DNA of 47,359 nt from Candidatus Woesearchaeota archaeon (lineage in GTDB: Archaea; Nanobdellota; Nanobdellia; SCGC-AAA011-G17; DATDVL01), in the NCBI GenBank assembly GCA_964365915.1, contig CAYIRJ010000004.1:1-47359 (forward strand), given 5' to 3'. The notes under the pieces were generated by a model. It did not search any database and was not told the DNA's origin. It saw only the letters and a program-made list of their open reading frames with translations. The position numbers were made by a program, and so were the translations under genes. Positions 566 through 19,917 of the stretch are shown here, piece by piece. Position 1 is the first letter of the stretch; every line of letters starts with the position of its first letter.

Positions 566-567
566 TT

Positions 568-669: not shown

Positions 670-684
670 TTCAACTCGAGAGCA

Positions 685-927
685 ATGGCTGAAGACACCT
701 TCGACATCCGCGAACACACCCTTGTGCCAAAACACGAGCGATTGAGTGAGGAGGCTGCGCAGCAGCTCTTGCAGAGTTATCACATTGAAAGAAAGCATCT
801 GCCAAAGATTTCTGTTAAGGATCCCTCTATCAAACATCTTGAACCCAAAGAAGGAGACATCATTAAAATCACAAGAATAAGCCCGACTGCGGGGAAAATA
901 TTTTTTTATCGTGCGGTGATGGAATGA
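685..927 (+). CDS. rpoH: DNA-directed RNA polymerase subunit H (Rpo5)
   Basis: 80 aa. The ...HTLVPKHERLSEEAAQQLL..GDIIKITRISPTAG pattern is typical of RpoH. It lies immediately upstream of rpoB and its stop overlaps the rpoB'' start (ATGA). Confidence 0.9.
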   Translation: MAEDTFDIREHTLVPKHERLSEEAAQQLLQSYHIERKHLPKISVKDPSIKHLEPKEGDIIKITRISPTAGKIFFYRAVME

Positions 928-2405: not shown

Positions 2406-4200
2406 CGTCTTCATGGATGAGCGCTTTATCGGAACAGTGGACAATGTGCAGAAGTTTACTGAGCAGGTCAAGGAAGAGCGGAAAAGCGGAAAACTTCCCA
2501 GTACTCTGAATCTTTATTACAATGATCGGCATGACGAGCTGCATGTTGAGCTTTCCAAAGGAAGAGTGAGAAGGCCGTTGATTGTTGTGAAGAACGGCAA
2601 GAGCTTGTTCACTGAAGAGATTTACCAGCAAGTACAAGCAAAAAAGATGGGATGGAAGGAACTGGTGAGCCAGGGTATTATTGAATATCTTGATGCGGCT
2701 GAAGAAGAAAATACGTATGTTGCACTCTATGAAGAGGATCTTACTCCCGAGCATACCCATCTTGAAATCTCTCCTACCATCATGTTTGGCATTACTACCA
2801 GTTTGGTGCCTTATGCGAATTTTGGTCAGTCTACACGACTCAACAGAGGAAGCAAAACTCAGAAACAATCATTGGGATTGTATGCCTTGAACTATTTATT
2901 GCGCATGGACACTGATGTTTCTATCTTGCAGTATCCCCAGCAGCCTATTGTCAGAACGTTCATGCATGAAATTTCTGGGTACAATCATCATCCTGCAGGG
3001 CAAAATATTACCATTGCGCTCATGAGCTATGAAGGATATAATATGAGCGATGCGATTATTTTGAACAAGGGCAGTGTGGAGCGAGGATTGGCGCGCAGTT
3101 TTTACTTTAGACCGTACAATGCAGAGGAACTGAGATACTCTGGAGGATTGGTGGATGAAATTGGCATTCCTGACAAGGAAACCAAAGGATACCGCAGCGA
3201 AAAAGACTATCGATTCCTGGAAGATGATGGCATTATCTACCCTGAGCAGCGCGTGAGACCTGAGGACATTCTGATTGGAAAAACCAGCCCTCCGAGATTC
3301 CTAGGAGAGATGGAAGAGTTTAGCATCGCAGCAAGCACACGGAGAGAGAGCTCGGTTGCAGTCAAGCAGGGAGAGGAAGGGGTTGTTGACTTTGTCGTTA
3401 TTACTGAAAACGAGGAAGGCAACAAGATCATCCAAGTACGATTACGTGAACAACGCATTCCTGAAATTGGAGATAAATTCGCATCACGCTACGGGCAAAA
3501 AGGAGTGATTGGCATGATTGTGCCGCAAGCTGACATGCCCTTCTCGGTTTCTGGCATTGTTCCTGATTTGATTTTCTCTCCGCACTCGGTTCCCAGCAGA
3601 ATGACTGTAAGCCATCTGATTGAAGTAATAGGAGGAAAGATGGGAGCGCTCACCGGGCGGTACATTGATGGTACGACTTTCAATTCTGAGCCTGAAGTTA
3701 ACATCCGCAGCATGCTAGGAGAGATGGGATTCAGGGAAAACGGTACTGAGCGCATGATTAACGGCATTACAGGAGAGGAATTTGAAGTCACGATCTACAC
3801 AGGAAATATGTTTTATCTGCGTTTAAAACACATGGTTGCGAACAAGCTGCATGCGCGGGCATCAGGAAGAATCCAGCTCCTGACCCGGCAGCCGGTGGAA
3901 GGAAGAAGCAAAGGCGGAGGGTTGCGCTTGGGAGAAATGGAAAAAGACTGCTTTGTCGCGCATGGCGCGAGCTTACTGCTGAAAGAACGCTTTGACTCTG
4001 ACAAGACCATTGTGCATATCTGCGAAGAATGCGGCATGCTTGCAGTCTATGACAGCTTCAGGAACAGAAAATTCTGTGTGAAAGATGGAAGCAATGTGGA
4101 AATTACCCCCATTGAAATCAGTTATGCATTCAAATTGCTGCTCGACGAATTGAAATCCATGGGTATTGCACCGAGGTTGCGCCTGAAAAGCAAATACTAA
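2398..4200 (+). CDS. rpoB1: RNA polymerase subunit B' (C-terminal half of Rpo2)
   Basis: 600 aa. Contains the GDKFASRYGQKG motif and a C-terminal zinc-binding CEECG... motif. Overlaps rpoB'' by 8 nt. Confidence 0.95.
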   Translation: MTDVFMDERFIGTVDNVQKFTEQVKEERKSGKLPSTLNLYYNDRHDELHVELSKGRVRRPLIVVKNGKSLFTEEIYQQVQAKKMGWKELVSQGIIEYLDAAEEENTYVALYEEDLTPEHTHLEISPTIMFGITTSLVPYANFGQSTRLNRGSKTQKQSLGLYALNYLLRMDTDVSILQYPQQPIVRTFMHEISGYNHHPAGQNITIALMSYEGYNMSDAIILNKGSVERGLARSFYFRPYNAEELRYSGGLVDEIGIPDKETKGYRSEKDYRFLEDDGIIYPEQRVRPEDILIGKTSPPRFLGEMEEFSIAASTRRESSVAVKQGEEGVVDFVVITENEEGNKIIQVRLREQRIPEIGDKFASRYGQKGVIGMIVPQADMPFSVSGIVPDLIFSPHSVPSRMTVSHLIEVIGGKMGALTGRYIDGTTFNSEPEVNIRSMLGEMGFRENGTERMINGITGEEFEVTIYTGNMFYLRLKHMVANKLHARASGRIQLLTRQPVEGRSKGGGLRLGEMEKDCFVAHGASLLLKERFDSDKTIVHICEECGMLAVYDSFRNRKFCVKDGSNVEITPIEISYAFKLLLDELKSMGIAPRLRLKSKY

Positions 4201-4201
4201 C

Positions 4202-6811
4202 ATGGCAGAGGACTACGTTTACAAATATGTGGACCAGATCCAGTTTGGACTGTTAAGCCCGGAAGAGATCCAGAAAATGAGTGCAGTAAAAGTTGTGACG
4301 CCTGAGCTGTATGACAATGAAGGATACCCTGTGGATGGAGGATTGATGGATATTCGCCTGGGGGTGATTGATCCTGGCTTACGATGCAAGACTTGTGGAG
4401 GGAAACTCAAGGAATGCATGGGGCACTTTGGCTATATTGACTTGGCACGGCCTGTTATTCATATCAAGTACATCAAGATGCTTCTGGATTGCTTGCGGTC
4501 TTCCTGCAGAGAGTGTGGGAAATTATTGCTGCAAGATAAGGACATGGAGAAATGGGGTCATCGCTTAACAAAATCACAGGCAGAAGGGGGAGAAGATGCA
4601 CGCAGGGATGTGGTGAGTTCAGTCATTACTAGTGTGAAGAATATCAGAAAATGTCCGCACTGTAAGGCGAAACAATATAGTATCAAGATCGAGAAACCCA
4701 GCACCTTTATGGAAAATGACAGAAGATTGACTCCTATTGAGATCAGGACAAGGCTAGAACGCATTCCTGATGATGCACTAGTGTATCTGGGATTACAATC
4801 GAAATCTGCACGCCCTGAATGGGCAGTGATGAGTATTTTGAATATTCCTCCCGTAACCATGCGGCCGAGTATTACTTTGGAAACAGGAGAACGGAGCGAG
4901 GATGATTTGACGCACAAGTTGGGAGATGTGGTCAGGATCAACCAGCGGTTATTTGAGAACATCAATGCAGGCGCTCCTGAAATCATTGTGGAGGACTTGT
5001 GGGACTTACTGCAGTACCATGTGACAACCTACTTGGATAATACCATCAGCCAGGTTCCTCCTGCACGGCACAGAAGCGGACAGGCATTGAAAACCTTAAC
5101 CGAGCGCATCAAGAGCAAGGAAGGAAGATTCCGCCATAATCTCGCAGGGAAGCGCGTTAACTATGCTGCACGCACAGTCATCAGTCCTGATCCGAAAATC
5201 AAGTTCAATGAAGTGGGCATCCCCCAGCGGGTAGCAATGGAACTGACGGTTCCTGAGCGAGTGAATGTCTGGAATATTGCATTGCTGAAGGAACTGATTG
5301 AGCGCGGTCCTGAAGTGTATCCGGGAGCGAACTATGTCATTAGACATGACGGCAAGAAAAAACAGATTACTGAAGAAACACGAGAAGTGATTCTTGCGGA
5401 ATTGGGACCGGGCATGATTGTGGAACGGCATCTTGTGGATGGGGACATTGCTTTATTCAACCGGCAACCGAGCTTGCATAGGATGAGCATCATGTGCCAT
5501 CGCATTCGCGTACTTCCGGGAAAAAGTTTTCGGTTGAATCCGAGCGTGTGCAATGCGTTCAATGCAGACTTTGATGGAGATGAGATGAACTTGCACGTTC
5601 CGCAGACTGAGGAAGCGCGTGCAGAAGCAGAAATCCTGATGGAAGTGCAGACCCAGCTCATTACTCCGAAGCATGGCTATAATGTCATGGGATGTGTGGA
5701 AGATGCAGTTACCGGACTCTACTTGCTGACGAAGGGGGAGGGCATGCCATTTTCCAAAGAGGAGGCTGTACAACTGTTTGTTAGCATTGGTATTGAAGAT
5801 CCTAAGATCACCCGACAAAAAGTTAATGGAAAGGAATTGTTCAGCATGCTGCTGCCGAAGGATTTTACCTATGAAGGACTTGCCAAAGGTGTGCCGAAAG
5901 ATGCGGAATTAAAAAGAGGAGATGATGGCTTGGTTATTATTGAAAACGGGCAACTGGTGAGCGGCGTCATTGATGCCAATGCTGTCGGAGAAGAACGCGG
6001 AAAAATGATCATGGAATTTTATCGGCGCTATGGCCCGGTAACCACCATCGAATTTTTAGGGAACATCTTCAGGCTGGGGATTAAGGTCTTGCTGAAGCGC
6101 GGGTTTACGATCAGCATTGACGACATCGACATTACTGAGGAAGTGCAAGAGAAAATTACTACATCACTTAGCCAAGGGGATAAGGACGTGGATGAACTGG
6201 TCAAAGAATACCATGCAGGCAAGATGGAAACGCTGCCAGGAAGAACCCTTGCAGAAACTTTAGAAATCAAAACCTTAGGAGTCCTGAACAAGATCCGCGA
6301 CAAAATCGGACAATATGTTGCACAAAACACGCGTCCAAAAAATTCTGCGGTGATCATGGCAAAATCAGGTGCCAAAGGAAAAATTTTGAACCTTGCCCAG
6401 ATGTCAGGGTGCGTCGGGCAGCAGGCACTGATGGGACACCGCATTACTACGGGATACAAAGGAAGAACTTTGAGCATGTTCAAAAAGCACGATTTGTCTG
6501 CAAATGCGCACGGATTTGTGAAGAGCAGCTTCAAAAGAGGATTAAATCCTTACGAGTTTTTCTTCCATGCCATGACCGGAAGAGATGGATTAATGGATAC
6601 TGCACTGCGCACTCCTAAGTCTGGTTATCTTTATCGAAGGCTGGCAAATGCATTGCAAGACATGAAAGTGGAGTATGACAACAGTATCCGAGATGCCAAC
6701 AAGAACATCGTGCAGTTTGCCTATGGTGAAGACGGACTTGAAGTCAGCAAAACTTGGGGAGGCAATCTCAACATCAAGCGCATTGTGAAGAGTGTCAAAC
6801 ATGAAAGATAA
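4202..6811 (+). CDS. rpoA1: RNA polymerase subunit A' (Rpo1N)
   Basis: 869 aa. Has N-terminal zinc motifs (CKTCGG..C..C) and the catalytic NADFDGDEMNLHVPQ motif. Confidence 0.95.
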   Translation: MAEDYVYKYVDQIQFGLLSPEEIQKMSAVKVVTPELYDNEGYPVDGGLMDIRLGVIDPGLRCKTCGGKLKECMGHFGYIDLARPVIHIKYIKMLLDCLRSSCRECGKLLLQDKDMEKWGHRLTKSQAEGGEDARRDVVSSVITSVKNIRKCPHCKAKQYSIKIEKPSTFMENDRRLTPIEIRTRLERIPDDALVYLGLQSKSARPEWAVMSILNIPPVTMRPSITLETGERSEDDLTHKLGDVVRINQRLFENINAGAPEIIVEDLWDLLQYHVTTYLDNTISQVPPARHRSGQALKTLTERIKSKEGRFRHNLAGKRVNYAARTVISPDPKIKFNEVGIPQRVAMELTVPERVNVWNIALLKELIERGPEVYPGANYVIRHDGKKKQITEETREVILAELGPGMIVERHLVDGDIALFNRQPSLHRMSIMCHRIRVLPGKSFRLNPSVCNAFNADFDGDEMNLHVPQTEEARAEAEILMEVQTQLITPKHGYNVMGCVEDAVTGLYLLTKGEGMPFSKEEAVQLFVSIGIEDPKITRQKVNGKELFSMLLPKDFTYEGLAKGVPKDAELKRGDDGLVIIENGQLVSGVIDANAVGEERGKMIMEFYRRYGPVTTIEFLGNIFRLGIKVLLKRGFTISIDDIDITEEVQEKITTSLSQGDKDVDELVKEYHAGKMETLPGRTLAETLEIKTLGVLNKIRDKIGQYVAQNTRPKNSAVIMAKSGAKGKILNLAQMSGCVGQQALMGHRITTGYKGRTLSMFKKHDLSANAHGFVKSSFKRGLNPYEFFFHAMTGRDGLMDTALRTPKSGYLYRRLANALQDMKVEYDNSIRDANKNIVQFAYGEDGLEVSKTWGGNLNIKRIVKSVKHER

Positions 6812-9398
6812 CGCAATTGATTTTGCAGCAGCACTGCCGAAAAAAATTTTGGATGAGTTTGAAGAGCTGGCAGCAGCAGAAAAATTAACGCAGAAACAGA
6901 AACAGGAAGCACTGGCACTGCTGCATGAAGAATATCAGAACAGCAAGATCAGCCCTGGGGAGGCGATTGGGATCATCACTGCAGAGAGCTTTGGCGAACC
7001 AGGGACTCAAATGTCACTATTTTTTAGTAACAAAATAATTGTGAAAATAAACAACAATAAAATATTTACGGTAAAAATTGGACCGTTTGTTGATATGTTA
7101 ATGAAGATGAAAGGATCATTTAAACTCAACGATCATTCAGAAATTCTTCCTTTACATGATTTTGAAATTTATGTTCCTAGTTTAAATCAAGAAGAAAAGA
7201 TAGAATGGAAACGCGTGATTGAATGTAGTAGGCATATCACAAACAAAAAACTTATGAGAATTACTACTGCTTCTGGTAGGTCTGTTACCTGTACTGATAA
7301 TCACTCTTTTGTAAATCGTATTCATAATAAGATTACTCCAATAAAAGGGACAGAATTGCAAATTGGAAATAGAATTCCCGTTATTAATTCATTTGTGAAT
7401 CCCTTACCGATGCAAGAATTATCTATCAAAAACCACATCATCGATAATGAAGGAATAGTTGAAGAAAAAGGCGTACTTTCCAAACCAGGAACTAATGCTA
7501 AATCTATGAATGGAAGTTTACCATTAAATGAATCTACTGGATGGTTTATTGGTGCATATCTTGCAGAAGGCAATGGAGGAAAATACCACGCTTCTCTTTC
7601 CAATGTAAATGATAATTACATCAATAACGGTAAACGCTTCGCTGATTCTCTAGGTATTGAACCTGTCGACAGATTTTATATTGGAGAATATGGTCCAGGT
7701 AGATCATTAACATTACATTCTGGATTTTTAGGTAGTTTCATTATAACTCATTGTGGGCAAGGTTCAGATTTCAAAAAAGTCCCTTACTTTGCTTATTCTG
7801 CATCTGATGCGTTCATCTCTGGATTGCTGAGAGGCTACTTTGATGGCGATGGGAATTTCCATGTGGATAGAAAGATGATTCGCTGCTCTTCCAATTCCAA
7901 AGAATTAATAGATGGCATTGCCTTGCTGTTGTCACGATTCAGAATATTTTCCTTTAAAGTACAAGATAAGAAAGGGCAGCACTGGCTCTTGATTCCCTAT
8001 AAGTATGCTCCTTTATTCTTGCAGCACATTGGAAGCGATATTGATTACAAACGTGCTAGCCTCGAAACTTTAGCAGAAAAAGCCAAACGCTTCTGGAATT
8101 CGAGAAGCCAAGATTATACAGACATGATTTCAGGATTTGGAGAACTTTTCAGGAATACTGCAAAGAAGGTTGGCTATCCTACGCGTTACGTCAATAACTT
8201 TACGAACCGCCAAAAAATTGGAAGAACTGCCCTCTTCCGATACATGAAACTCTTTGAACATCTTGCCAAGGAAAAAAACATAGACATTAAGGATGAGCTT
8301 GCTATCATGCAGCGCATGTCTTCCTCTGATGTGGTGTGGGATGAGATTGTAAAGATTGAATATGTCGATAATGACAAGCCTGTTTATGACCTCAGCGTGC
8401 CAGGATTAGAAACATTCACGACAGCAGATGGCATTATCACCCATAACACTTTGAATGTTTTTCACTTTGCAGGCGTCGCGGAAGTGGCAGTGACCCAAGG
8501 ATTGCCCAGGCTTATTGAACTGTTTGATGCCAGAAAAGAAATCAAGACTCCTTTAATGGAAATTTATCTGGACAAGGATATTGCCAAGGATCCTGAAAAA
8601 GTGAGGAAGATGGCTGCACAAATCAGGGAAACCCGTGTCGAGGAAGTGGTCAGTGATTTTTCCATTGATGTTGCACGGCTGCAGATTGCATTGGTGCTGG
8701 ACAAACAGAAGATGAGAAACCTTTCCATTACCAACAATCAGCTAATGAAAGCACTGGAACAGGACATTAAAACTGCCTCGATCAAGGATGAAGGAGATAG
8801 CATTGTACTGAAAACTAAGGTAAAGGAAAATGAGCTGATGGAAACGTACAAGCTGAAGGAAAAAACAAAAACAGTGTTTGTCCGGGGAGTTGCGGGCATC
8901 ACCCAAGTATTGCCAGTGAAGGCAGGCAACGAGTTCATTATCCTTGCAGCAGGGTCGAATCTGAAGGAAGTGTTCGCACTGAAAGGAGTGGATGCTGCAC
9001 GTACGACTACGAACGACATCTTTGAAGTGCAAAAAGTGCTGGGTATTGAGGCAGCACGGCAGACCATCATTAACGAGGCGAAAAAAGTGATTGAGGACCA
9101 AGGACTGGAAGTGGATGTCCGTCATATTTTGTTTATTGCAGATGCCATGACTGCAACAGGAGTAGTAAAAGGGATTACTCGATCAGGCATTACTGGAGAG
9201 AAGGAAAGCGTGCTTGCCCGGGCCAGCTTTGAAACCCCTATTGAACACTTGGTGGATGCCTCGCTGGTGGGAGAAGTAGACTATTTGAATTCCGTCATTG
9301 AAAATGTGATGCTGAACCAGATTGTTCCTTTGGGAACAGGATTGCCTGACCTCAGGGCAGTGACCCAAACTGAGGACAAGGAAAAGAAGGAAGCATGA
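6792..9398 (+). CDS. rpoA2: RNA polymerase subunit A'' (Rpo1C), interrupted in frame by a 478-aa intein
   Basis: 868 aa in total. The extein flanks GEPGTQM | TLNVFHFAGVAEVAVTQGLPR match the conserved A'' motif. Without the intein the protein is ~390 aa, typical for A''. Confidence 0.95.
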   Translation: MSNMKDNAIDFAAALPKKILDEFEELAAAEKLTQKQKQEALALLHEEYQNSKISPGEAIGIITAESFGEPGTQMSLFFSNKIIVKINNNKIFTVKIGPFVDMLMKMKGSFKLNDHSEILPLHDFEIYVPSLNQEEKIEWKRVIECSRHITNKKLMRITTASGRSVTCTDNHSFVNRIHNKITPIKGTELQIGNRIPVINSFVNPLPMQELSIKNHIIDNEGIVEEKGVLSKPGTNAKSMNGSLPLNESTGWFIGAYLAEGNGGKYHASLSNVNDNYINNGKRFADSLGIEPVDRFYIGEYGPGRSLTLHSGFLGSFIITHCGQGSDFKKVPYFAYSASDAFISGLLRGYFDGDGNFHVDRKMIRCSSNSKELIDGIALLLSRFRIFSFKVQDKKGQHWLLIPYKYAPLFLQHIGSDIDYKRASLETLAEKAKRFWNSRSQDYTDMISGFGELFRNTAKKVGYPTRYVNNFTNRQKIGRTALFRYMKLFEHLAKEKNIDIKDELAIMQRMSSSDVVWDEIVKIEYVDNDKPVYDLSVPGLETFTTADGIITHNTLNVFHFAGVAEVAVTQGLPRLIELFDARKEIKTPLMEIYLDKDIAKDPEKVRKMAAQIRETRVEEVVSDFSIDVARLQIALVLDKQKMRNLSITNNQLMKALEQDIKTASIKDEGDSIVLKTKVKENELMETYKLKEKTKTVFVRGVAGITQVLPVKAGNEFIILAAGSNLKEVFALKGVDAARTTTNDIFEVQKVLGIEAARQTIINEAKKVIEDQGLEVDVRHILFIADAMTATGVVKGITRSGITGEKESVLARASFETPIEHLVDASLVGEVDYLNSVIENVMLNQIVPLGTGLPDLRAVTQTEDKEKKEA
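7014..8447 (+). mobile_element. Class 1 intein with LAGLIDADG homing endonuclease domain, inserted in rpoA''
   Basis: Begins with Ser (SLFFSNKIIV) right after extein GTQM. Has block B TCTDNHSF and LAGLIDADG motifs GWFIGAYLAEGNG and ISGLLRGYFDGDGNF. C-terminal block VYDLSVPGLETFTTADGIITHN is followed by +1 Thr (TLNVFHFAG). Length 1434 nt, in frame. Confidence 0.85.
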
Positions 9399-9649
9399 GT
9401 CTGGATGCACTGCGCAAAGCATTGAAGGAAAAAACCTTAGTCTATGGAAGTGATGCTACTTTGCGTAATCTCCGGCTGGGAAAAACGAAAACTATTTTCC
9501 TGGCGAAAAACTGCCCTGCTCTGGTGAAAGAAAGCATCCAAAGATACTCGCGGATAGCTGATGTCATGATTTATGCATTGGACGAGCCGAGCGACGAGCT
9601 TTCTCTTATCTGCAAGAAGAAATTCAATGTTGCGGTCGTGAGCTATTAA
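9395..9649 (+). CDS. rpl30e: 50S ribosomal protein L30e
   Basis: 84 aa. Lies between rpoA'' and nusA as in other archaea, has an L30e/L7Ae-fold pattern (..LAKNCP..), and its start overlaps the rpoA'' stop. Confidence 0.75.
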   Translation: MSLDALRKALKEKTLVYGSDATLRNLRLGKTKTIFLAKNCPALVKESIQRYSRIADVMIYALDEPSDELSLICKKKFNVAVVSY

Positions 9650-9652
9650 ACC

Positions 9653-10060
9653 ATGCAGTATGACCTCCAGTTGATTGGCTATCTCAATACTTTTGAATCC
9701 CTAACCCGATCGAAAGTGAAGGATGTGTTCTTTGATGCTACGGAGACCTTGGTGTTTGTGATGCAGCCAGGAGAGATGGGAAAAGCCATTGGCAAGAAAG
9801 GCAGCAATGTGAAACGCTTAGGAAACTTGCTGAAGAAGCGCATTCGCGTTATTGAATTTTCTTCTTCTGCCATTGATTTTGTTAAAAATTGCACGCTGCC
9901 CTTGATTCCGAAAAAGATGGTGCAGGAAGTGGATACTATCACTATCACCATGGAAAATACGCAACAGAAGGCTATGCTGCTGGGAAGGAACAAAAGCAAT
10001 TTCTTGAATATGCAGAAGATAGTGCAGAGATATTATCCGGTGCAGCTGAAAGTGTTATAG
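9653..10060 (+). CDS. nusA: Archaeal NusA-like KH-domain transcription termination/antitermination factor
   Basis: 135 aa with two KH-like segments (GEMGKAIGKKGSNVKRL); conserved position after L30e. Confidence 0.8.
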   Translation: MQYDLQLIGYLNTFESLTRSKVKDVFFDATETLVFVMQPGEMGKAIGKKGSNVKRLGNLLKKRIRVIEFSSSAIDFVKNCTLPLIPKKMVQEVDTITITMENTQQKAMLLGRNKSNFLNMQKIVQRYYPVQLKVL

Positions 10061-11266
10061 AAATATATCATCCTCAGCATCGTAGTCCATTCCTAAGGCC
10101 TTTGTGAATTTTACTTGGTTTTCCTTGATCTGCAGTTTTTGCAGTGCCTTGTTCCTTATTTGTCGAATTCTTTCTCGTGTCACGTTTCCCTCGATTGTAC
10201 CTACTTCTTCCAATGTTCTTTTTTCTCCTGTAAGATACAATAATCTTATTATTCTTTTTTCTCTTTCTTTTAAAGAAGTTTTATCAAGTGCTTGAATAAT
10301 CATTTCTTTATCATAGACTAAAATATTTTCCCTTATCCTTTCTTGGTAATCATGGCAATCTCTTTTTTCCAAATAATCAACTATTTCTTGATCTTGTTGA
10401 TTGTGCTGAATATTTTCTTTTGCTGGAGTTAAGTCCTGCTTAGCTCTGTCATCTAATGTCAACGTTCGATGAAGATTCTGATCTTTGGGTTCTTGGTAAA
10501 GAGTGTTTATTTCTAGATTTACAGGATTCAAAGCCTTGCATATTAATTCAGTTTTTTTATCCGCAATTTCTTCTCCTCTTATTACCTTTTCTGCCCTTAG
10601 GAATAAAAAAGAATCTAGATGCACTGCTGCATAGGAATAGTTATGATAATTTTCACTCATTACACCAAAAAAGGCAGCTCTATACACTGCTGTGTATCCT
10701 GGATGTTTTTCTGCTTTTCTCACGAAATTAATAATAGATATAGAAGCCCGCTGTATGAGATCTTCCAATGGTGGTGATTCTAAATTCCTTGATTTTCTAT
10801 AGCGAATAAATGATTTTCCTGCCTGCGTGGCTGTATGCAGAAAATACGTCTCCATAAATCGTTGCATCTCTTGTTCAGAATATCCTGCTTCTTTCAACGC
10901 TGGAGCAATATGCCCTCGATAATGATGTACAAATGTTGCATGGTATCTTTGATTTACTTCTTCTTGCGTGGCAGATGGGTGCTGCTGTAAAAATTTGAGA
11001 AAGTTCCTTTTTCTTTCATCCCAGACTTTCTCTGACAATTGCCCTTTTCCCCTATTCCAAGCTGATTTTGAAATGCCTACATCTTTTTTTGCATTGTTAA
11101 TTCTCAACCGGTAGAACTTTTTGAGAATGGATTCTAGTCCTGCTTTCCTTACATCCCTTATGCTCGCTCCTTGATGACTTGCTAAATAGTCATAAAATTC
11201 TGTTAATCCTCTTTCCCAATATGCGTAATCCTTCTGTACCTGTTTTTGCTCTGATATAGTAGTCAT
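10055..11266 (-). CDS. Sigma-70-family-like protein (region 2 DLIQ... and region 4.2 HTH) of bacterial type, antisense within the rpo-str cluster
   Basis: 403 aa. C-terminal LDKTSLKEREKRIIRLLYLTGEKRTLEEVGTIEGNVTRERIRQIRNKALQKL is a near-consensus sigma-70 region 4.2. EDLIQRASISIINFVRKAEKHPGYTAVYRAAFFGV resembles region 2.1-2.2 (DLIQEGNIGLMKAVEKFD..GFKFSTYATWWI). Lower GC than its neighbours; overlaps the nusA stop convergently. Confidence 0.7.
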   Translation of the reverse strand: MTTISEQKQVQKDYAYWERGLTEFYDYLASHQGASIRDVRKAGLESILKKFYRLRINNAKKDVGISKSAWNRGKGQLSEKVWDERKRNFLKFLQQHPSATQEEVNQRYHATFVHHYRGHIAPALKEAGYSEQEMQRFMETYFLHTATQAGKSFIRYRKSRNLESPPLEDLIQRASISIINFVRKAEKHPGYTAVYRAAFFGVMSENYHNYSYAAVHLDSFLFLRAEKVIRGEEIADKKTELICKALNPVNLEINTLYQEPKDQNLHRTLTLDDRAKQDLTPAKENIQHNQQDQEIVDYLEKRDCHDYQERIRENILVYDKEMIIQALDKTSLKEREKRIIRLLYLTGEKRTLEEVGTIEGNVTRERIRQIRNKALQKLQIKENQVKFTKALGMDYDAEDDIFL

Positions 11267-11308
11267 TTATCTCTTGTCATTCATTTTCTTTTTAAGACTT
11301 GTGAACTT

Positions 11309-11722
11309 TTAGAATTCCATAACGTGAGGAGATTCCTTTATTTCCTCATTAGCAATCAGTGGAGCTGGTTCCCTACGATACACTCTTCCTTTTGCAATCA
11401 GTTTCGAAGACTCTTCAGGGTGCACTAAAGGAGGATGTTTATACCGTACTTTGACAGCATCATTTTGATACAGTACTGTTCCCTCTGCTTGTAAAATACA
11501 TACCAACCCCTCATCAAGTCCTGCTAGTGGAATATGCCATCCTAAATGAGTTTTTACAGAAGCGAACTGGATACTTTGATTGGGATATGTACATACATAC
11601 CAAAATTTTCCTTCCTCCTCACCCCTTGTTATTCCTCGTGTGATAATGGTCAGAATTTCATTTTTCTTTACTGTCCTTAATACTTCTTCTAATGCAGAAA
11701 AGACCCCCATATGTGACTTCAT
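11309..11722 (-). CDS. Hypothetical protein (137 aa), upstream partner of the sigma-like gene
   Basis: ORF co-oriented with 10055-11266 and separated from it by 42 nt. No recognisable motif. Confidence 0.55.
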   Translation of the reverse strand: MKSHMGVFSALEEVLRTVKKNEILTIITRGITRGEEEGKFWYVCTYPNQSIQFASVKTHLGWHIPLAGLDEGLVCILQAEGTVLYQNDAVKVRYKHPPLVHPEESSKLIAKGRVYRREPAPLIANEEIKESPHVMEF

Positions 11723-11788
11723 ACGTGACTTATTAGGCGTTATGAGTATAAATACTTAATGTCTACCAAATAAAAAATCAGCACAATC

Positions 11789-11796
11789 TTTATAAA
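11789..11796 (+). promoter_or_regulatory. TATA-box-like element for rps12 (leaderless)
   Basis: TTTATAAA centred ~27 nt upstream of ATG 11820. Confidence 0.35.
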
Positions 11797-11819
11797 TGGC
11801 TTTCAGAAATTATTTTCTT

Positions 11820-12257
11820 ATGTCTGGAAAATCCAATGGATTATTTGCTGGAAAGCGCTTGAAGAATCGGAGAAAACAATTTCGGTGGAACTCTAAATGG
11901 TTCACTAGGAAAACACTGAATCTTAAGGAGAAAGCAGATCCTCTGGGAGGAGCTTCGCAGGCTAAGGGAATTGTTTTGGAAAAGACACAGCGGGAAGCGA
12001 AACAGCCAAATTCAGCGATGAGAAAATGCGTTCGCGTTCAGCTTCAGAAAAATGGAAAGATCATCACTGCATTTGCGCCAAGAGATGGAGCCATTAAGCA
12101 GATTGATGAGCATGATGAAGTCATTGTTGAATGCATTGGTGGTACTATGGGAAGGGCGAAAGGAGATTTGCCTGGTGTGAGATGGCAAGTGATCAAGATT
12201 AACGATCAAAGCTTGGATGCCTTACTGAAAGGCAAGATTGAAAAGGGACGACGATGA
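11820..12257 (+). CDS. rps12: 30S ribosomal protein S12 (uS12)
   Basis: [39 protein letters not shown] is a canonical S12 pattern. The start is chosen at MSGKSNG (11820), matching archaeal S12 N-termini, with a TATA at 11789-11796. The ORF track begins at 11796. Confidence 0.9.
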
Positions 12258-12844
12258 AGCTTTTTGGTAGATGGGATGTTGCTGGAATCCAGGTGGCTGA
12301 TCCTGGGCTGAAGGAGTACATTAATTTGAGAGCAATGCATGTGCCCCGCATGGCAGGTAGAAATATGAAAGTAAGATTCTGGAAGAACAAGTACACTTTA
12401 GTTGAACGCTTCATGAACAAGCTGATGGTGCCTGGGCATAAGGGAAAAAAACATCTCTTGAGTTCGGGAAGATGCGGAGGAAAGGGATTGACTTCTGTTG
12501 CTCTCACCTTGAAAACTTTCCAGCTTGTGGAGCAGAAGACCAAGAAAAACCCTATAGAAATTTTTGTGAAGGCTGTTGAGAATGCTGCTCCGCGCGAGGA
12601 TATTACTACTATTGAATATGGGGGTGCAAAATACCCGCATTCTGTTGACTGTGCACCACAACGCAGGATTGATATTGCCCTTCGCTTCATGATCCAGGGC
12701 AGCTACGGAAAAAGCTATGGCAAGAAAATTAAAGCGCATGAGGCTTTGGCAGATGAAATTATCAGAGCATATCAGAGTGATGGAAGGAGCTTTGCCATCT
12801 CCAAGAAACTGGAATTGGAACGGCAAGCTGATGCTGCGCGATAA
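12254..12844 (+). CDS. rps7: 30S ribosomal protein S7 (uS7)
   Basis: 196 aa. [25 protein letters not shown] is a typical archaeal S7 start. ATGA overlap with rps12. Confidence 0.95.
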
Positions 12845-13267
12845 TTACTCTTCTTCGATCCGTTTTTTCTCTACTCTATATCCAGCATATCGAAAAATAG
12901 ACTGATACTCTTTTTTACATACACTGCGTCGTGGTGATTGTTCGGGTTTTGGTTGATGGAGAAGTTCGTCAAGACTCTTGAGATTATAGTCCCATAATTT
13001 ACTTATTCTTCCTTGCGCAGCAAGTTCATTAAAAATTATTTTTATATTCTCTTCAGCATATACTCTCTTGTATCTTTCCCCTATACGTCCCAACATTTTT
13101 GCAATTTTTTCGTCTAGATACTGTACATAGGGAGCAAGTCTCCTTTCTAATCCTCCCCTTCTGCATCCTAATTGGAGTGCCATAGCTTTTACTTCTGGAA
13201 GGACATAGACCAACGTTTTCCCTTCCTGCGCTAATTGTTCTCGATACTGACGTAAACTTTCTGTCAT
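12845..13267 (-). CDS. Hypothetical protein (140 aa) antisense between rps7 and fusA
   Basis: ORF abuts the rps7 stop; charged C-terminus; no motif recognised. Confidence 0.5.
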   Translation of the reverse strand: MTESLRQYREQLAQEGKTLVYVLPEVKAMALQLGCRRGGLERRLAPYVQYLDEKIAKMLGRIGERYKRVYAEENIKIIFNELAAQGRISKLWDYNLKSLDELLHQPKPEQSPRRSVCKKEYQSIFRYAGYRVEKKRIEEE

Positions 13268-13339
13268 ATGTTACCATTATTAAGAGACTCTTTTTAAACA
13301 TTATGCATCAGGAAACGTTTCCTTTCAGTGTTGAAAAGG

Positions 13340-13348
13340 TTTTTAAAT
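13340..13348 (+). promoter_or_regulatory. TATA-box-like element for fusA
   Basis: TTTTTAAAT centred ~28 nt upstream of ATG 13372. Confidence 0.3.
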
Positions 13349-13371
13349 CATTTTCTTGATCTTCTTGAGTC

Positions 13372-15576
13372 ATGGGGAAAGCTACCACTATTGAAGATCT
13401 TAAGGCGTTGATGAAGAAGCCTGATAATATCAGGAATATCTGTACTTCAGCACACATCCATCACGGCAAAACGGCATTAACAGACAACCTTTTAGCAGCT
13501 GCTGGACTGATGAGTGAAAAGGCAGCAGGCAGTCTAGAAGAAGGCATGGCTACTTGGCAGCACAAGGATGAGCAAGAACGATTAATGACTGTGGATGCTG
13601 CGAACGTGAGCATGAGCCATGAGTATGAGGGGCAATCGTATTTGATTAATCTCATTGATACTCCTGGACACGTTGACTTTGGGGGCAATGTAACAAGGGC
13701 CATGCGCGCCATTGATGGTACGATTGTTTTGATTTGTGGGGTGGAAGGGATCATGCCCCAAACCGAGACTGTAATGAAGCAGGCCATCCGCGAACGGGTC
13801 AAACCAGTGTTGTTCATCAACAAAGTAGACAGGATGATCAATGAATTGAAATTGACTCCTGAGCAGATGCAGGAGCGATTCGTGAAACTGGTACTTGATT
13901 TCAACAAGTTAGTGGAAAATATTACAGAAGATGAATTCAAAGAAACATGGAAAGTTAACATTTTGGATGGTAGCGTGGCATTTGGATCTGCACGGGAAAA
14001 CTGGGGATTGAGCATTCCCAACATGAAGAAAAAAGGCATCACCTTCAAACACATCATTGAGCAATACACTTCAGGAAAACCCAAAGAGGAGATTACTGAC
14101 TGGTTCTGGAAGAACGCTCCTCTTTATGAAGTCATACTCGACATGGTGATTAAACATTTGCCGAATCCTCTGATTGCACAGCAATATAGAATTCCGCACA
14201 TCTGGAAAGGAGATATTCAAAGCCGTTTTGGGCAGGATCTGGTGCACTGCAATTCTGAGGGAAAAATTGCCTTTGTCATTACAAGAATTGTGATTGATCC
14301 GAAATTCAGCAGGGAGATGGCTGCAGGAAGGTTATTTTCTGGAACCATTAAAGATGGCATGCAGGTCTGGCTGAACAACGCCAAGCTGCACCAACGGGTA
14401 GGCCAAGTATTTCTCTATAAAGGAACAAGGCCTGAGCAGATTGGAGAAGCTGTTGCGGGGAATGTGATTGCCTTGGGAGGGGTTTCTGGATTTGCAGGAG
14501 AGACGATTACTTTAGAACAGGAGCAGCCGTTTGAGGATATGAAACACATCTTTGAACCTGTCATTACCAAGAGCATTGAACCTATGAAACCTCAAGATCT
14601 GCCGAAACTCGTAGAGATCCTGAAAAAAGTGAGCAAGGAAGATCCTTCCTTGAAAGTCACGATTAACCTGGAAACGGGAGAGAATTTAATTCACGGTATG
14701 GGAGAGTTGCATTTAGAGATTATTGAAAATAGGATCAAGGATGAGCGCGGTTTCCAGGTGAAGACAGGAGAGCCTATTGTTGTGTATCGAGAGACTGTGC
14801 AAAAGCCTTCTGTGGAAATGGAAGGGAAATCTCCGAACAAGCATAATAAATTCTACATTACTGTTGAACCTCTGAGCAAGGAATGGTACACATTAATAAA
14901 AGAAGACGTGCTCACAGGAGGAAAAATGAAGAAAGGCGATGCCGAGGCCTACTTGAAACTGGAAAAGGCAGGTATTCCTGTAAAGGAAGCAAAGAAAATC
15001 AGAGATGTCTACAATGAAAACGTGCTGATTGATGACACGAAAGGAATTGTGGCTATAGGAGAAGTGCAGGAACTGATTAATGAAGGATTTGAACAAGTGA
15101 TGCGCGAGGGTCCCATTGCTCGAGAGCCGTGCGTAAAATTAAAGGTATTTATCAAAGATTGCAAGCTGCATGAGGATGCAATCCATCGAGGGCCTGCTCA
15201 AGTGCTGCCTGCGATCAGAGAAGGTATCAAAGCTGCGATGGTGGATGCGAAGGCACTGCTCTACGAGCCGTACCAAGTTATTCTGATTGAGTGTCCCAGT
15301 GATTTCATGGGAGAAATCAACAAATTGGTTTCGAACAAGCGGGGTCAATTATTCGATATTGAGCATAAGGGCACAGAGATCTTAGTAAAATGCAGGATGC
15401 CGGTGGCTGAGATGATTGGGTTAGCTTCTGATCTGAGAAGCGCAACTGAAGGGAGAGGTACCTATTTCATGGTGGATCAGGAATTTGACAAGGTTCCTGG
15501 GGACTTGCAGGAAAAAGTGGCACGAAAGATTAGGGAAAGAAAAGGTTTGAATCCTGATCAAATGAACCTGAGCTAG
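13372..15576 (+). CDS. fusA: Elongation factor 2 (aEF-2)
   Basis: 734 aa. Has the GTPase motifs AHIHHGKT, DTPGHVDF and NKVD, and the diphthamide loop HEDAIHRGPAQ. Confidence 0.95.
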   Translation: MGKATTIEDLKALMKKPDNIRNICTSAHIHHGKTALTDNLLAAAGLMSEKAAGSLEEGMATWQHKDEQERLMTVDAANVSMSHEYEGQSYLINLIDTPGHVDFGGNVTRAMRAIDGTIVLICGVEGIMPQTETVMKQAIRERVKPVLFINKVDRMINELKLTPEQMQERFVKLVLDFNKLVENITEDEFKETWKVNILDGSVAFGSARENWGLSIPNMKKKGITFKHIIEQYTSGKPKEEITDWFWKNAPLYEVILDMVIKHLPNPLIAQQYRIPHIWKGDIQSRFGQDLVHCNSEGKIAFVITRIVIDPKFSREMAAGRLFSGTIKDGMQVWLNNAKLHQRVGQVFLYKGTRPEQIGEAVAGNVIALGGVSGFAGETITLEQEQPFEDMKHIFEPVITKSIEPMKPQDLPKLVEILKKVSKEDPSLKVTINLETGENLIHGMGELHLEIIENRIKDERGFQVKTGEPIVVYRETVQKPSVEMEGKSPNKHNKFYITVEPLSKEWYTLIKEDVLTGGKMKKGDAEAYLKLEKAGIPVKEAKKIRDVYNENVLIDDTKGIVAIGEVQELINEGFEQVMREGPIAREPCVKLKVFIKDCKLHEDAIHRGPAQVLPAIREGIKAAMVDAKALLYEPYQVILIECPSDFMGEINKLVSNKRGQLFDIEHKGTEILVKCRMPVAEMIGLASDLRSATEGRGTYFMVDQEFDKVPGDLQEKVARKIRERKGLNPDQMNLS

Positions 15577-15793
15577 AACTGAAAAACGAAATATTAATAA
15601 AGGGATTTTCTTTCATTTTTATATCTTTATTCCTGTACGATTGGGTTTTCTTTTTCCCGCAGGAAAGGAGATTTTCTCCTCATCGTTTTCTTAGAGGGTT
15701 TTTGCTCTTTTTTACTCTTTAGTAGTTACAAAACGAAAACTTTAAATATGCAAAGGATTTATTTCTCTTCATAACTTAATGAGGTGTTGACGA

Positions 15794-16117
15794 ATGAAAC
15801 TGATTACAGCAACGGAAAAAGTTGAAAGAATTCTTAATAAAGAAATTAGTGAATATAGAGTTGGGCATAGCTCTTATCAATCTGATTTTGCACGTGCCCT
15901 CCATCTTCGCGAACAGCTCTTCTCTTGTGTTGATCGCATTCTTGATGGGGACACAGAAATCCCACAGATTGTTGGCGTTATTCAACGTGCTTTAAATTAT
16001 GGACCTGAGGTAGAAAATCTTGTTTTACAACTTGGTGCTCAGAGGAATACTACTGTTAGTACTGTCTTACCTGCACCTATTGCAGAAGCAGTTTTTCACT
16101 ATCGACGGAAGAGGTGA
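15794..16117 (+). CDS. Hypothetical protein (107 aa)
   Basis: ORF with GAGGTG Shine-Dalgarno ~8 nt upstream; low-GC island between fusA and tuf. Confidence 0.5.
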   Translation: MKLITATEKVERILNKEISEYRVGHSSYQSDFARALHLREQLFSCVDRILDGDTEIPQIVGVIQRALNYGPEVENLVLQLGAQRNTTVSTVLPAPIAEAVFHYRRKR

Positions 16118-16122
16118 TAATC

Positions 16123-16617
16123 ATGAAGGAAAACGGTGCTGTTGCTGTTCTTGATCAATTTCCTTTTCATTTTGATGATGAGAGATATGTTTCTAGTGTT
16201 GGAGGCACTTATTGTGTTCCTTTACACACTTCGACGCTACGATGTTTCAGTAAGAAGGAAAGGATCTCCCTCCTTCGAGATAGAGAGGAAAGTCTTCAAG
16301 CAAGTCTTTTAGATGCGCGCCACGCATTCGCCAATGATGTTTTAGAACGATGGGTATGCAGAACTTATATTGCCCGACCGGAAGGAGGATCAGAACCATC
16401 TCTGGAAGATGCGGGCGACACTCGTTTATTGTGGTATATTATCGAGGAAAACACGGAACTCCAGTCACGCCTTGAAGATTTCAGAGAACTGAAAGAGGGT
16501 CCTGTGAATCGTGATAACCTTCTGCAAAGACTTTCCGGCTATATAAGGGGGAACTACGACTCGCTCGTTAATGAAGTTTTGGATACTCTCGCAGAAAAAA
16601 ACAGACTTACTGTTTAA
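16123..16617 (+). CDS. Hypothetical protein (~164 aa)
   Basis: ATG at 16123 preceded by AAGAGGTGA. The ORF-track start at 16114 is GTG and overlaps the upstream stop. Confidence 0.5.
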   Translation: MKENGAVAVLDQFPFHFDDERYVSSVGGTYCVPLHTSTLRCFSKKERISLLRDREESLQASLLDARHAFANDVLERWVCRTYIARPEGGSEPSLEDAGDTRLLWYIIEENTELQSRLEDFRELKEGPVNRDNLLQRLSGYIRGNYDSLVNEVLDTLAEKNRLTV

Positions 16618-16729
16618 ATTTATCCTTTTCTTTTTTATTCATGCTAAAAGGATTGAAAAATTCTTTTATGGGGTTAAGATCACAAGTTTTAAATATCCCC
16701 TAATTCTGGCAATTTCCCCACGAGGTTTT

Positions 16730-16954
16730 ATGGTTTATCTTTTCAAGAACGATCGAGGAAGATTTACCTACAAGTTTCATACTCTTCTTGAAGGCAGGCC
16801 TCTGCGTGTGGGTGATATTTATCAGGAACTTACCGCTATTCAGGAATGCCTTGGTCAGCCCTGGCATGAGCACCCTGTTGCGCGACGCAGGATGGGAAAA
16901 GGTGAGATTACGCTTCCGGTATGGAACCTTGTCTCTTGTCATCCTCCGTTATGA
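16730..16954 (+). CDS. Hypothetical small protein (74 aa from internal Met); alternative to 16788-17120
   Basis: ATG at 16730 with GAGGT 4 nt upstream. Overlaps the 16788-17120 ORF in another frame; one of the two may be spurious, or the locus may be frameshifted. Confidence 0.3.
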   Translation: MVYLFKNDRGRFTYKFHTLLEGRPLRVGDIYQELTAIQECLGQPWHEHPVARRRMGKGEITLPVWNLVSCHPPL

Positions 16955-17120
16955 ACGGAACAAAACTCTTGTTGATGCCACTTTGAAAGCAGAAAAGTTT
17001 CTATCGCTTGACACTCCCGCGCTTCTTGCTCTTGAAGATTATTTCTTATCTTATCAGCACAAAGGAAAAGTCCTCCAACTTCTTCGAGAAAAACCTGTAT
17101 CTGCGTTTTCTGCGCTTTAG
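16788..17120 (+). CDS. Hypothetical protein (110 aa); overlaps alternative ORF 16571/16730-16954
   Basis: The C-terminal half (TLKAEKFLSLDTPALLALEDYFLSYQHKGKVLQLL) is protein-like. Ends 4 nt inside the convergent gene 17117-17671. Confidence 0.35.
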   Translation: MKAGLCVWVIFIRNLPLFRNALVSPGMSTLLRDAGWEKVRLRFRYGTLSLVILRYERNKTLVDATLKAEKFLSLDTPALLALEDYFLSYQHKGKVLQLLREKPVSAFSAL

Positions 17121-17671
17121 AATTCTTTCCTTTCCCTGAGATGCTTTATCAGTCCTGGAGGAAGCAAGGGCTTTCCCTTCCTGAGAACGTAAGTGAACGG
17201 CAGCTCTACAGATTCTGTTGTGTTCAAGTGAATTTCAATACCGTCTCGGAATTGAAGATCGTTCAGCTTCTTTCCCTGCATAATCTTTCTTGCCACATAG
17301 ACTGCAGTGTCTGTAGAGAACTGTTTCTTTCCTAGGTTTCTTGTGGGATAGGGGAGCTTTAAGGAAAGCTCTTTTTTGGTTCTTGCACGCGGAGGATGAT
17401 CACCTAAAATGCCCCCTAAAATCAGCGTATCAAACCTGTCCTGCGGGGATAATGTTTTTTGAGCAGACGGATCTAACACATATGCATTTGGGAACTTCAG
17501 CTGGAGAATTGATTTTTTATATACTGTCCCCCACTTTTGGAGTTCCCTTTTTCCCTTCTTGATATTGGTGAAGATAACATTTTCCTTTCCCGCAATCTTG
17601 GAAATGTGCTTGTATTCTATCAGGCACCAGGGAAATAATTCAGGTTCACGATGCTCGACGATGAACTTCAT
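17117..17671 (-). CDS. Hypothetical protein (184 aa), possibly an alpha/beta-knot (SPOUT)-like RNA-modification enzyme
   Basis: Glycine-rich segment FDTLILGGILGDHPPRARTKKEL. The fold assignment is a guess. Confidence 0.5.
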   Translation of the reverse strand: MKFIVEHREPELFPWCLIEYKHISKIAGKENVIFTNIKKGKRELQKWGTVYKKSILQLKFPNAYVLDPSAQKTLSPQDRFDTLILGGILGDHPPRARTKKELSLKLPYPTRNLGKKQFSTDTAVYVARKIMQGKKLNDLQFRDGIEIHLNTTESVELPFTYVLRKGKPLLPPGLIKHLRERKEF

Positions 17672-19332: not shown

Positions 19333-19917
19333 ATGGTAAAATTATTTTTAGTGCGCCACGGGGAAGCAATTGAAGCAGAGCCTGAGCCTATGCTTTCGAA
19401 AAAAGGTAAACAACAAGCAAAGGCTGTTGCAAAAAGGCTTGTACAATTTCGAATAACGAAAGTATATACGAGTAGCGCACGGCGAGCTTTGGAAACTTAT
19501 GAGCTATACAAAAAATTGAAACCTGATATTCCGGTTATAGTTTCTGATAAGTTAAAAGAAGTATATCGTACATTAGTTGGTGGTCCTGAACGTGAAGGTA
19601 CATCTCTCGATCGTGCAAAGAAAGATATGCAACGTGCAGATACTATCTTAAAAGAGATCCTTGATGATACTAAAGAAGATGATATTGTTCTTTTGTTTAT
19701 TCATGGAAATTTAATTCGATATATTCTTGCTCACTTTTTACAAATAAGTAAAGTGAACTTATGGGAAGAGTTAGAGATTCATGATGCTTCAATCTCATTA
19801 ATCGAAATTGTTAACAACAAACCACAAATCCGCTTGGTTAATTCCATCGAACATTTAGATAAAAAAGAAGTTGATGAATTCTACAATTGCTATGCAAAAA
19901 CAGAATATCTTTCTTAG
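19333..19917 (+). CDS. Histidine phosphatase superfamily protein (phosphoglycerate-mutase-like)
   Basis: LVRHGEA (RHG catalytic motif) at the N-terminus and a second His in LLFIHGNLIRY. Convergent, with a 4-nt overlap, with the glycosyltransferase operon. Confidence 0.7.
   Translation: MVKLFLVRHGEAIEAEPEPMLSKKGKQQAKAVAKRLVQFRITKVYTSSARRALETYELYKKLKPDIPVIVSDKLKEVYRTLVGGPEREGTSLDRAKKDMQRADTILKEILDDTKEDDIVLLFIHGNLIRYILAHFLQISKVNLWEELEIHDASISLIEIVNNKPQIRLVNSIEHLDKKEVDEFYNCYAKTEYLS

Follow-up and report, generated by a model that had tools for sequence, protein, structure and literature searches.

An archaeon encodes a member of the sigma-70 family. The stretch of DNA analyzed here, called the window, comprises 47,359 nucleotides of Candidatus Woesearchaeota archaeon contig CAYIRJ010000004.1 and covers an archaeal RNA polymerase (RNAP)/str gene cluster. 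Within that cluster, antisense between nusA and rps12, a minus-strand open reading frame (ORF; positions 10055–11266, stop codon included) specifies a 403-amino-acid protein. Our analysis confirms that this protein is a genuine sigma-70-family homolog possessing a sigma-2-like domain and a sigma-4 domain. Sigma factors define bacterial transcription initiation, and TBP and TFB define archaeal initiation. In our judgment, the protein is probably, although far from certainly, a DNA-binding transcription regulator particular to the DPANN lineage.

The first-pass annotation of this DNA had recognized a region 4.2 helix-turn-helix (HTH) at the C-terminus, and that assignment holds. Specifically, region 4 matches Pfam PF04545 at 41.1 bits (E 1.3e-10; cut-off 24.1), NCBIfam TIGR02393 RpoD_Cterm spans residues 284–386, SigA chains are the best sequence matches among solved structures in the PDB, and hhalign identifies sigma-4 at 99.6% (E 7e-25). 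Region 2 behaves differently in a check by profile hidden Markov model (HMM). PF04542 gives no match at E ≤ 1, either for the window protein or for its homologs P0131, P0132, P0138, and P0147, and the sigma70-ECF (extracytoplasmic function) superfamily model TIGR02937 reaches 28.6 bits, below its 42.9 cut-off, though spanning residues 167–379. Thus, by that check, region 4 stands and region 2 does not. The sigma-2 domain proposed earlier from a DLIQ-containing block is nonetheless supported along three other lines. First, BLASTP aligns the protein with Chloroflexi RpoD colinearly from residue 166 to the C-terminus. Second, comparison of the family profile with an RpoD alignment returns 99.7% (E 2e-25) over 223 colinear columns running from region 2.1 to region 4.2; region 2 alone yields 79.5% (E 1.5e-5), at the correct place. 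Third, AlphaFold, run template-free on only five family sequences, predicts a sigma-2 fold and a sigma-4 fold in the order in which sigma factors carry them.

The segments of the protein, all encoded on the minus strand, are as follows. Region 1.1/1.2 is absent; in its place, the N-terminus consists of two copies of a ~50-amino-acid basic, helical, HTH-like module, at residues 18–67 (positions 11066–11215) and residues 83–131 (positions 10874–11020), for which the repeat HMM scores 48 bits. The sigma-2-like domain follows (residues 132–204; positions 10655–10873), with counterparts of regions 2.1 and 2.2 and a degenerate counterpart of 2.3; the LEDLIQ sequence lies within this domain, which is basic, with an isoelectric point of about 10. 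Next comes an acidic linker (residues 205–319; positions 10310–10654; net charge −8) that is predicted to be disordered and is modeled at low confidence, with predicted local distance difference test (pLDDT) values of 25–49. In the full-length hhalign alignment, a linker motif of the family, L-x-P-x-x-LE, falls on the P-x-SLE of sigma region 3.2; when the middle segment alone is submitted to hhalign, it gives no signal for a sigma-3 domain. The sigma-4 domain (residues 320–380; positions 10127–10309) comprises the region 4.1–4.2 HTH, with the recognition helix T363-RERIRQ-I370. Finally, a C-terminal tail (residues 381–403; positions 10058–10126) with the pattern LQI..N..KF.K.LGMD and an acidic end is kept in the family and aligns with the RHPSRSxKLKDYL tail of RpoD.

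The residues by which sigma factors act are unevenly retained. In region 4, R364, E365, R366, R368, and Q369 correspond to sigma-70 R584, E585, R586, R588, and Q589. All five, which contact the −35 element in sigma-70, agree exactly with the RpoD consensus VTRERIRQIE, and the signature TLEEVG...VTRERIRQI is present; not all family members keep the five residues. In region 2.3/2.4, the hhalign alignment places Y191 on Y425, R196 on Y430, F199/F200 on W433/W434, M203 on Q437, and E205 on T440. The positions for melting and −10 readout are thus mostly replaced, they vary among family members, and only F199/F200 maintain the aromatic character of W433/W434. In region 2.2, every family member has D169 and Q172. 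At the E407 equivalent, four of five family members have E and the window protein has R, and the N409 equivalent is S, M, or A. Describing this as a full sigma-like protein, as was done initially, therefore goes too far, since the −10 and melting residues are not kept and the sigma-3 domain is undetectable.

The host is archaeal and the contig is sound. The cluster runs in the order split RpoB, RpoA′, RpoA″, L30e, NusA-type KH protein, S12, S7, EF-2, EF-1a, S10, and the only RNAP in the window is of the archaeal Rpb1/Rpb2 type. NCBI and ENA hold the exact 403-amino-acid protein, from samples of Hainich groundwater (well H51, 0.1 µm fraction), and the near-identical cluster member MEK6813056.1 is recorded as [quoted passage not shown] MAG denoting a metagenome-assembled genome. 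Together, the archaeal neighbors and the Nanoarchaeota record uphold the claim that a sigma homolog lies inside an archaeal RNAP/str cluster. Two independent Hainich assemblies, made from replicate samples, run collinearly with the window through both the nusA and the rps12 junctions: L001 over window positions 3098–16192 (99.84%) and L011 over 6425–11881 (99.69%). Because both assemblies share both junctions, a chimeric contig, judged unlikely from the start, is very unlikely. The ORF is intact in all three assemblies, with no differences in L001 and two amino-acid differences, S5V and R364Q, in L011. The latter allele (L011:616–1824, against window 10058–11266) alters the first arginine of the TRERIRQ recognition helix. 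R364Q may be an error because coverage of the L011 contig is only ~4x.

The window protein belongs to a small family, defined from alignment A1 by at least two N-terminal ~50-amino-acid repeats, a G-L-P-S-P-x-L-E-D-L-x-Q-E block, an L-x-P-x-x-LE-Y motif, a sigma-4 domain, and the LQI..N..KF tail. It fits this definition, though its second motif reads LNPVNLEI rather than ending in LEY; in full-length members, an acidic run follows the motif. Word-indexed searches with the full protein or with residues 1–290 returned only the protein itself and, via region 4, bacterial RpoD, and when the family alignment served as the query, bacterial sigma factors overwhelmed the results. Exhaustive HMMER searching of 1.84 billion representatives produced three matches at E ≤ 1e-30 and 14 at E ≤ 1e-10. 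These searches identified P0131 (835 amino acids; 343 bits; 37% identity over query residues 7–399), P0132 (775 amino acids; 224 bits; adjoining rtcB and archease), P0138 (partial; Ca. Pacearchaeota), and P0147 (330 amino acids; E 3.2e-10). Those closest to the window protein are themselves DPANN proteins with its repeat, sigma-2, and sigma-4 architecture, at 33–37% identity. Where a source is named, the full-length relatives belong to DPANN (Ca. Nanoarchaeia, Ca. Pacearchaeota), and homologs on the remaining contigs have archaeal neighbors. Invariant columns persist among members at 23–37% identity.

A scan of GTDB species genomes and JGI metagenomes with the region 2 pattern found family members only in DPANN-named records or in the P0131 lineage, the sources being Ca. 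Nanoarchaeia SMAG_U8190, Ca. Pacearchaeota CG10, and JGI contigs L012 and L013. Other metagenome matches were the window's own population (L011) and a single canonical sigma factor, in which the repeat is lacking (L014). Family members reside at the loci L002/L012/L013, L003, and L007. In the P0131 lineage, the closest homolog present in several samples (P0394–P0398; L002:6957–9464; L012:18–1784), 14 of the 19–22 amino-acid differences between alleles fall within residues 523–552; these 30 residues align with sigma region 2.3/2.4. Among codons 540–552 there are six nonsynonymous changes and one synonymous change, and L012 is a mosaic of the two alleles. The segment could be under diversifying selection or could be a recombination tract. 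Diversification by a diversity-generating retroelement seems unlikely: we saw no reverse transcriptase nearby, and the substitutions are not adenine-specific.

The N-terminal repeat, with the consensus EERKEELLEYLRENPEATKKDIRKAGYGSVLRKFYKGRINEAKKDAGIPV, matched no Pfam model, and we found no description of it. There are 115 copies, in tandem arrays of two to eight, in 34 proteins (33 of the 150 best matches, plus the query). The repeat is basic (mean +3 per copy) and HTH-like, and a fold search preferred TetR-type HTH domains. Repeat profile A4 also weakly matches, at E 0.03, the sequence of IWS1 in its TFIIS-N-terminal-type domain (LL..L...P....E.L...G.G..V..LYKH), an identification that gained no support from the fold search.

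Pfam scans of the repeat-bearing matches reveal what else the repeat is fused to. It occurs with Sigma70_r4 alone (P0136, P0150, P0154, P0155, and P0165), with an ECF-like Sigma70_r2 plus region 4 (P0148), with the TFIIB cyclin repeat (P0143, P0160, and P0162), and, in three copies, with a bacterial RNAP alpha-subunit C-terminal domain (alpha-CTD; P0171, 371 amino acids, on a 1.8-kb JGI contig; PF03118, 29.8 bits against a cut-off of 23.8). Repeat protein P0135 comes from Ca. Aenigmarchaeota. The neighbors of P0148, P0165, and P0137 include genes of archaeal type: PcrB and eIF-5A, GatD/GatE with TrmB regulators, and diphthamide synthase, respectively. P0137, a repeat-only protein of five copies, is encoded directly 3′ of, and 2 nt away from, a 1,177-amino-acid SNF2-family helicase of the same strand (L010 4465–8996). 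Several multi-HTH proteins are encoded around it; the contig is 236 kb long, and the diphthamide synthase encoded there points to an archaeal source. Thus, the repeats are typical of DPANN, and the window protein is one architecture in a DPANN-centered set that pairs the repeat with promoter-DNA-binding modules.

The set also has a mirror image. Two syntenic JGI contigs, L004 (Ga0453288_0328, 92 kb; 3643–8870) and L015 (Ga0453688_0006789; 422–5963), encode bacterial DnaX, DnaB, bL21, and RecR above NCBIfam trusted cut-offs. The same contigs encode a 278-amino-acid TFB-like protein (Zn_Ribbon_TF plus TFIIB cyclin; E 9e-71 to the TFIIB model) and the repeat-bearing TFIIB-cyclin proteins P0160 and P0162. 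Our text search of the literature found no paper tying TFIIB to Patescibacteria or the candidate phyla radiation (CPR).

How might the window protein function? The reading that we favor, regulation through DNA binding, begins with a bacterial primary-type (RpoD-like) sigma factor as the presumed ultimate source of the sigma-2, linker, and sigma-4 module, to which the pair of basic HTH-like repeats would have been joined at the N-terminus. The sigma-4 HTH would bind a specific, hexamer-type DNA site. Given that sigma-70 has the same five −35-contacting residues, that site is possibly −35-like. The basic repeats could supply additional contacts to DNA or to a partner. Promoter opening in the manner of a sigma factor should be impossible because the residues for −10 recognition and melting are gone from the sigma-2-like domain. 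We therefore infer a repressor or activator that would operate beside TBP, TFB, and TFE, not an initiation factor. We count in favor of this reading that, across the matches, the repeat is combined with other promoter-DNA-binding modules.

Two sets of observations weigh against a regulator of this kind. First, we found no DNA target. TTGACA is not enriched in the window: dinucleotide shuffles predict 37.8 ± 6.1 occurrences, the window has 23, and the hexamer is under-represented in that all 100 shuffles contained at least 23. As a candidate target, then, the −35-like motif fared poorly, being depleted if anything, and a scan for sigma-70 promoter-like sequences came out at or below the shuffle expectation. 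Second, outside region 4, conservation in the family is highest in region 2.2, whose helix in real sigma factors binds core RNAP and makes no contact with DNA. A pure DNA-binding regulator would have no obvious need for such conservation.

The conservation of region 2.2 leads directly to an alternative, that the protein binds the archaeal RNAP. The clamp coiled-coil of RNAP is universally conserved, and it is the site that sigma region 2.2 occupies in bacteria and that TFE and Spt5 occupy in archaea. The notion is that the Rpo1N clamp coiled-coil would receive the sigma-2-like domain, with promoter DNA held by sigma-4 and the repeats. The protein would then serve as an alternative factor for initiation or recruitment, or would compete with TFE and Spt4/5. 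Consistent with such docking, conservation outside region 4 peaks at the region 2.2 motif L-E-D-L-I/V-Q-E, the sigma-2 fold is kept, and a P-x-x-LE motif and an acidic run sit at the place of the sigma region 3.2 finger. In addition, a single repeat scaffold carries either sigma or TFIIB cyclin modules. Homology between sigma and TFB has been proposed (PMC4581349), and such a swap is expected if the modules are functionally interchangeable, as that hypothesis argues. The absence of known anti-sigma factors in DPANN, as given in the section of Castelle et al. 2021 on sigma factors (PMC8204110), likewise fits a factor of this type. On the other side, the melting and −10 residues of region 2.3/2.4 are degenerate, sigma-3 is undetectable, and the family, with its 14 matches at E ≤ 1e-10 among 1.84 billion representatives, is rare, unlike a core factor. 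N409 of region 2.2 is not kept. Linkage to RNAP genes is not maintained either: the homolog follows rps2 in L002 and adjoins rtcB in L007. We regard this alternative as unlikely.

A bolder proposal takes in both the sigma module and the repeat. In it, the sigma module would be a working partner of archaeal RNAP via region 2.2, and the repeat would be a cross-domain scaffold for interchangeable sigma, TFB-cyclin, and alpha-CTD modules. We consider this combination improbable. If true, some DPANN would run a sigma-type recruitment or initiation pathway beside TBP and TFB, the fusions would offer direct evidence from nature that sigma and TFB are functionally equivalent, and the repeat scaffold would span DPANN and, in mirrored form, a bacterium encoding TFB-like proteins.

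Equally improbable, in our view, is the initial suggestion of a recently acquired mobile cassette, derived from a virus, a plasmid, or bacterial DNA and consisting of the sigma-like gene and a neighboring 137-amino-acid ORF, which would be a passenger or would hijack transcription. Several features could be taken that way, namely, the antisense orientation within a highly conserved cluster, the orphan neighbor, an IS200-like transposase elsewhere in the window, matches of PHROG sigma families to region 4, and base composition. GC content is 0.356 and 0.391 in the sigma-like and 137-amino-acid ORFs, against 0.43–0.47 in core genes. GC content at third codon positions (GC3) is 0.27–0.28 in the three antisense ORFs (these two and a third between S7 and EF-2), against 0.40–0.57 in highly expressed core genes. 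However, eight other chromosomal genes of the window have GC3 of 0.19–0.27, for example those at 19333–25112 (0.19–0.25). The lower GC of the pair relative to the flanking core genes is thus real, but it does not mark a cassette; GC3 values of 0.19–0.28 are common among non-core genes of the window, and we discarded low GC as a sign of horizontal transfer. The remaining expectations of a mobile element also fail. Residues 1–260 have no relative in INPHARED phages or PLSDB plasmids by tblastn, and family profile A2 (query residues 15–235) has none in IMG/VR. No flanking or terminal repeats, integrase, or tRNA were found at the sigma-like gene. The only transposase in the window, the IS200-like gene at 25688–26119, follows S10 and lies 14 kb away. 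The PHROG sigma-family matches, like those to MzaA, are confined to region 4. Finally, because the closest homologs are chromosomal DPANN genes at only 33–37% identity, residence in DPANN appears to have been long. Recent capture from a phage, plasmid, or bacterium is therefore not borne out, given the lack of viral and plasmid relatives, repeats, and integrase, the unexceptional GC3, and the DPANN affinity of the nearest kin.

Two further readings fare worse still. That the gene is a decaying, presently functionless relic of an old bacterial sigma transfer is very unlikely: the degeneration of regions 2.3/2.4, the missing sigma-3 domain, and the sparseness of the family would suit it, but the ORF is intact in three assemblies (identical in L001 and differing by two amino acids in L011), columns remain invariant among members at 23–37% identity, the sigma-4 recognition helix is near consensus, and folded domains are predicted with confidence. 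Least probable of all, and entirely speculative, is an action on bacterial RNAP, for instance as an effector delivered to a bacterial partner cell; we saw no signal peptide or secretion context, and the known hosts of DPANN are archaea, of which Castelle et al. 2021 say only "in some cases" (PMC8204110). Because the −10 and melting residues are lost, the protein could be at best a decoy for the bacterial enzyme. What such a scheme would draw on is the match of the −35-reading residues to primary sigma, the RpoD-type C-terminal tail, the presence of the repeat on a contig with bacterial core genes, and the view, expressed by Castelle et al. 2021, that DPANN are episymbionts (PMC8204110).

With regard to its surroundings, the sigma-like gene converges on the gene for the archaeal NusA-type KH protein (135 amino acids; 9653–10060, plus strand). 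The 6-nt overlap between the sigma-like ORF and the nusA stop reported in the first-pass annotation is present as TTATAG, made up of the nusA stop TAG (10058–10060) and the minus-strand stop TAA (10055–10057). The 137-amino-acid ORF (11309–11722, minus strand) lies upstream of the sigma-like ORF across a 42-nt gap and is possibly cotranscribed with it. Divergent from this ORF, beyond a 73-nt spacer, is the gene for S12 (11796–12257, plus strand). The 137-amino-acid ORF is also present in the independent assemblies; it matched nothing in Pfam, NCBIfam, PHROGs, PADLOC, or the PDB, and a comparison of homolog neighborhoods found no counterpart adjoining other family members. Upstream of nusA are the split RpoB genes of archaeal type (Rpb2-like B″/B′; 924–2405 and 2398–4200), RpoA′ (Rpb1-like; 4202–6811), and RpoA″ (Rpo1C, Rpb1-like; 6792–9398, plus strand). 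RpoA″ contains an intein with a LAGLIDADG homing-endonuclease domain (Intein_splicing, LAGLIDADG_3), and local GC is 0.34 at 7001–8000.

The conserved cluster is also broken at S7/EF-2, EF-2/EF-1a, and EF-1a/S10. Between S7 and EF-2, the third antisense ORF (140 amino acids; 12845–13267, minus strand; GC3 0.27) begins at the S7 stop and is present on three contigs; it has no family match above cut-off, with a weak sub-threshold match to PhoH (19.4 bits against 27). The EF-2/EF-1a interval (15794–17671) holds several genes, including an SFM1-like methyltransferase and orphans. Between EF-1a and S10 is a 6-kb, low-GC3 glycosyltransferase block (19333–25112), with a histidine phosphatase gene on the plus strand and glycosyltransferase, kinase-like, RraA-like, and cytidylyltransferase genes on the minus strand. 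We considered the 137- and 140-amino-acid ORFs as conserved partner genes and dismissed both, as neither has family, structure, or defense matches; nor does either resemble the 140-amino-acid gene beside homolog P0132. The functional tie to the RNAP operon implied by the first description of the locus finds no support in these arrangements, since homologs sit elsewhere (rps2, rtcB) and the cluster is interrupted at several other points. The antisense site between nusA and rps12 is most likely an accident of a repeatedly broken cluster.

What do these findings mean? A sigma-derived protein kept in archaea indicates that initiation-factor modules are reused after crossing domains. The fusion set offers a testable handle on whether sigma and TFB modules are interchangeable, and it bears on the rewiring of transcription in ultra-small symbionts, DPANN and perhaps CPR bacteria. 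If the window protein proves to be only a DNA-binding regulator, it represents a modest addition to the bacterial-type regulators in archaea.

Among known cases, the closest by description are the sigma-70-type genes (fam00359) that Castelle et al. 2021 reported to be prevalent in DPANN Woesearchaeota (PMC8204110). In the passage on sigma factors, those authors ruled out mis-binning via neighboring archaeal genes, found no anti-sigma factors, and left the mechanism of control unknown (PMC8204110). A sigma homolog in a DPANN archaeon is, because of that report, not new in itself, and the premise that archaea are not known to use sigma factors gives way both to it and to the NCBI name, which already reads sigma factor-like. 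Our literature text searches found no other paper on DPANN sigma-70-type genes. Like those genes, the one in the window is a sigma-70-like gene in a Nanoarchaeota/Woesearchaeota-type genome; compared by description alone, the sigma-factor passage contains no repeat architecture, TFIIB or alpha-CTD fusions, or operon position (PMC8204110). Beyond what that passage covers, we add the retention of sigma-2 and sigma-4 folds together with the loss of melting residues, a small DPANN family built on an undescribed ~50-amino-acid HTH-like repeat, and the fusions of that repeat to sigma-4, ECF-type sigma, TFIIB cyclin, and alpha-CTD, including on contigs with bacterial core genes.

Other known systems resemble the window protein in part. 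With the bacterial primary (group 1/2, RpoD-like) sigma-70 factors, it is colinear in regions 2.1, 2.2, 4.1, and 4.2, the tail, and a possible remnant of 3.2, and it shares their sigma-2 and sigma-4 folds and −35-contacting residues. In contrast to those factors, it is found alongside an archaeal Rpb1/Rpb2-type RNAP, it lacks region 1.1/1.2 and a detectable sigma-3, its region 2.3/2.4 is degenerate, its sigma-2-like domain is basic, it has two N-terminal HTH-like repeats, and it falls short of the Sigma70_r2 and TIGR02937 cut-offs. Sigma-4-only and LuxR/GerE-type HTH regulators, including the archaeal "LuxR solos," are a second comparison: the window protein best matches Sigma70_r4, not GerE, and it has the sigma-2 fold and the sigma inter-domain order that both kinds of regulator lack. 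MzaA, of the MZA antiphage system, is likewise a sigma-70-family protein with a long non-sigma N-terminal extension. We rejected the identification of the window protein as MzaA: it reaches 39.5 bits against NCBIfam NF041931, far below the cut-off of 800, and 27.8 bits against the PADLOC model, in region 4 only, and there are no Mza partner genes nearby. Finally, archaeal TFB and eukaryotic TFIIB, like the window protein, carry a promoter-binding module, and the repeat is fused to TFIIB cyclin in P0143, P0160, and P0162. In place of the Zn ribbon, B-reader, and cyclin fold of those factors, the window protein possesses modules of the sigma type.

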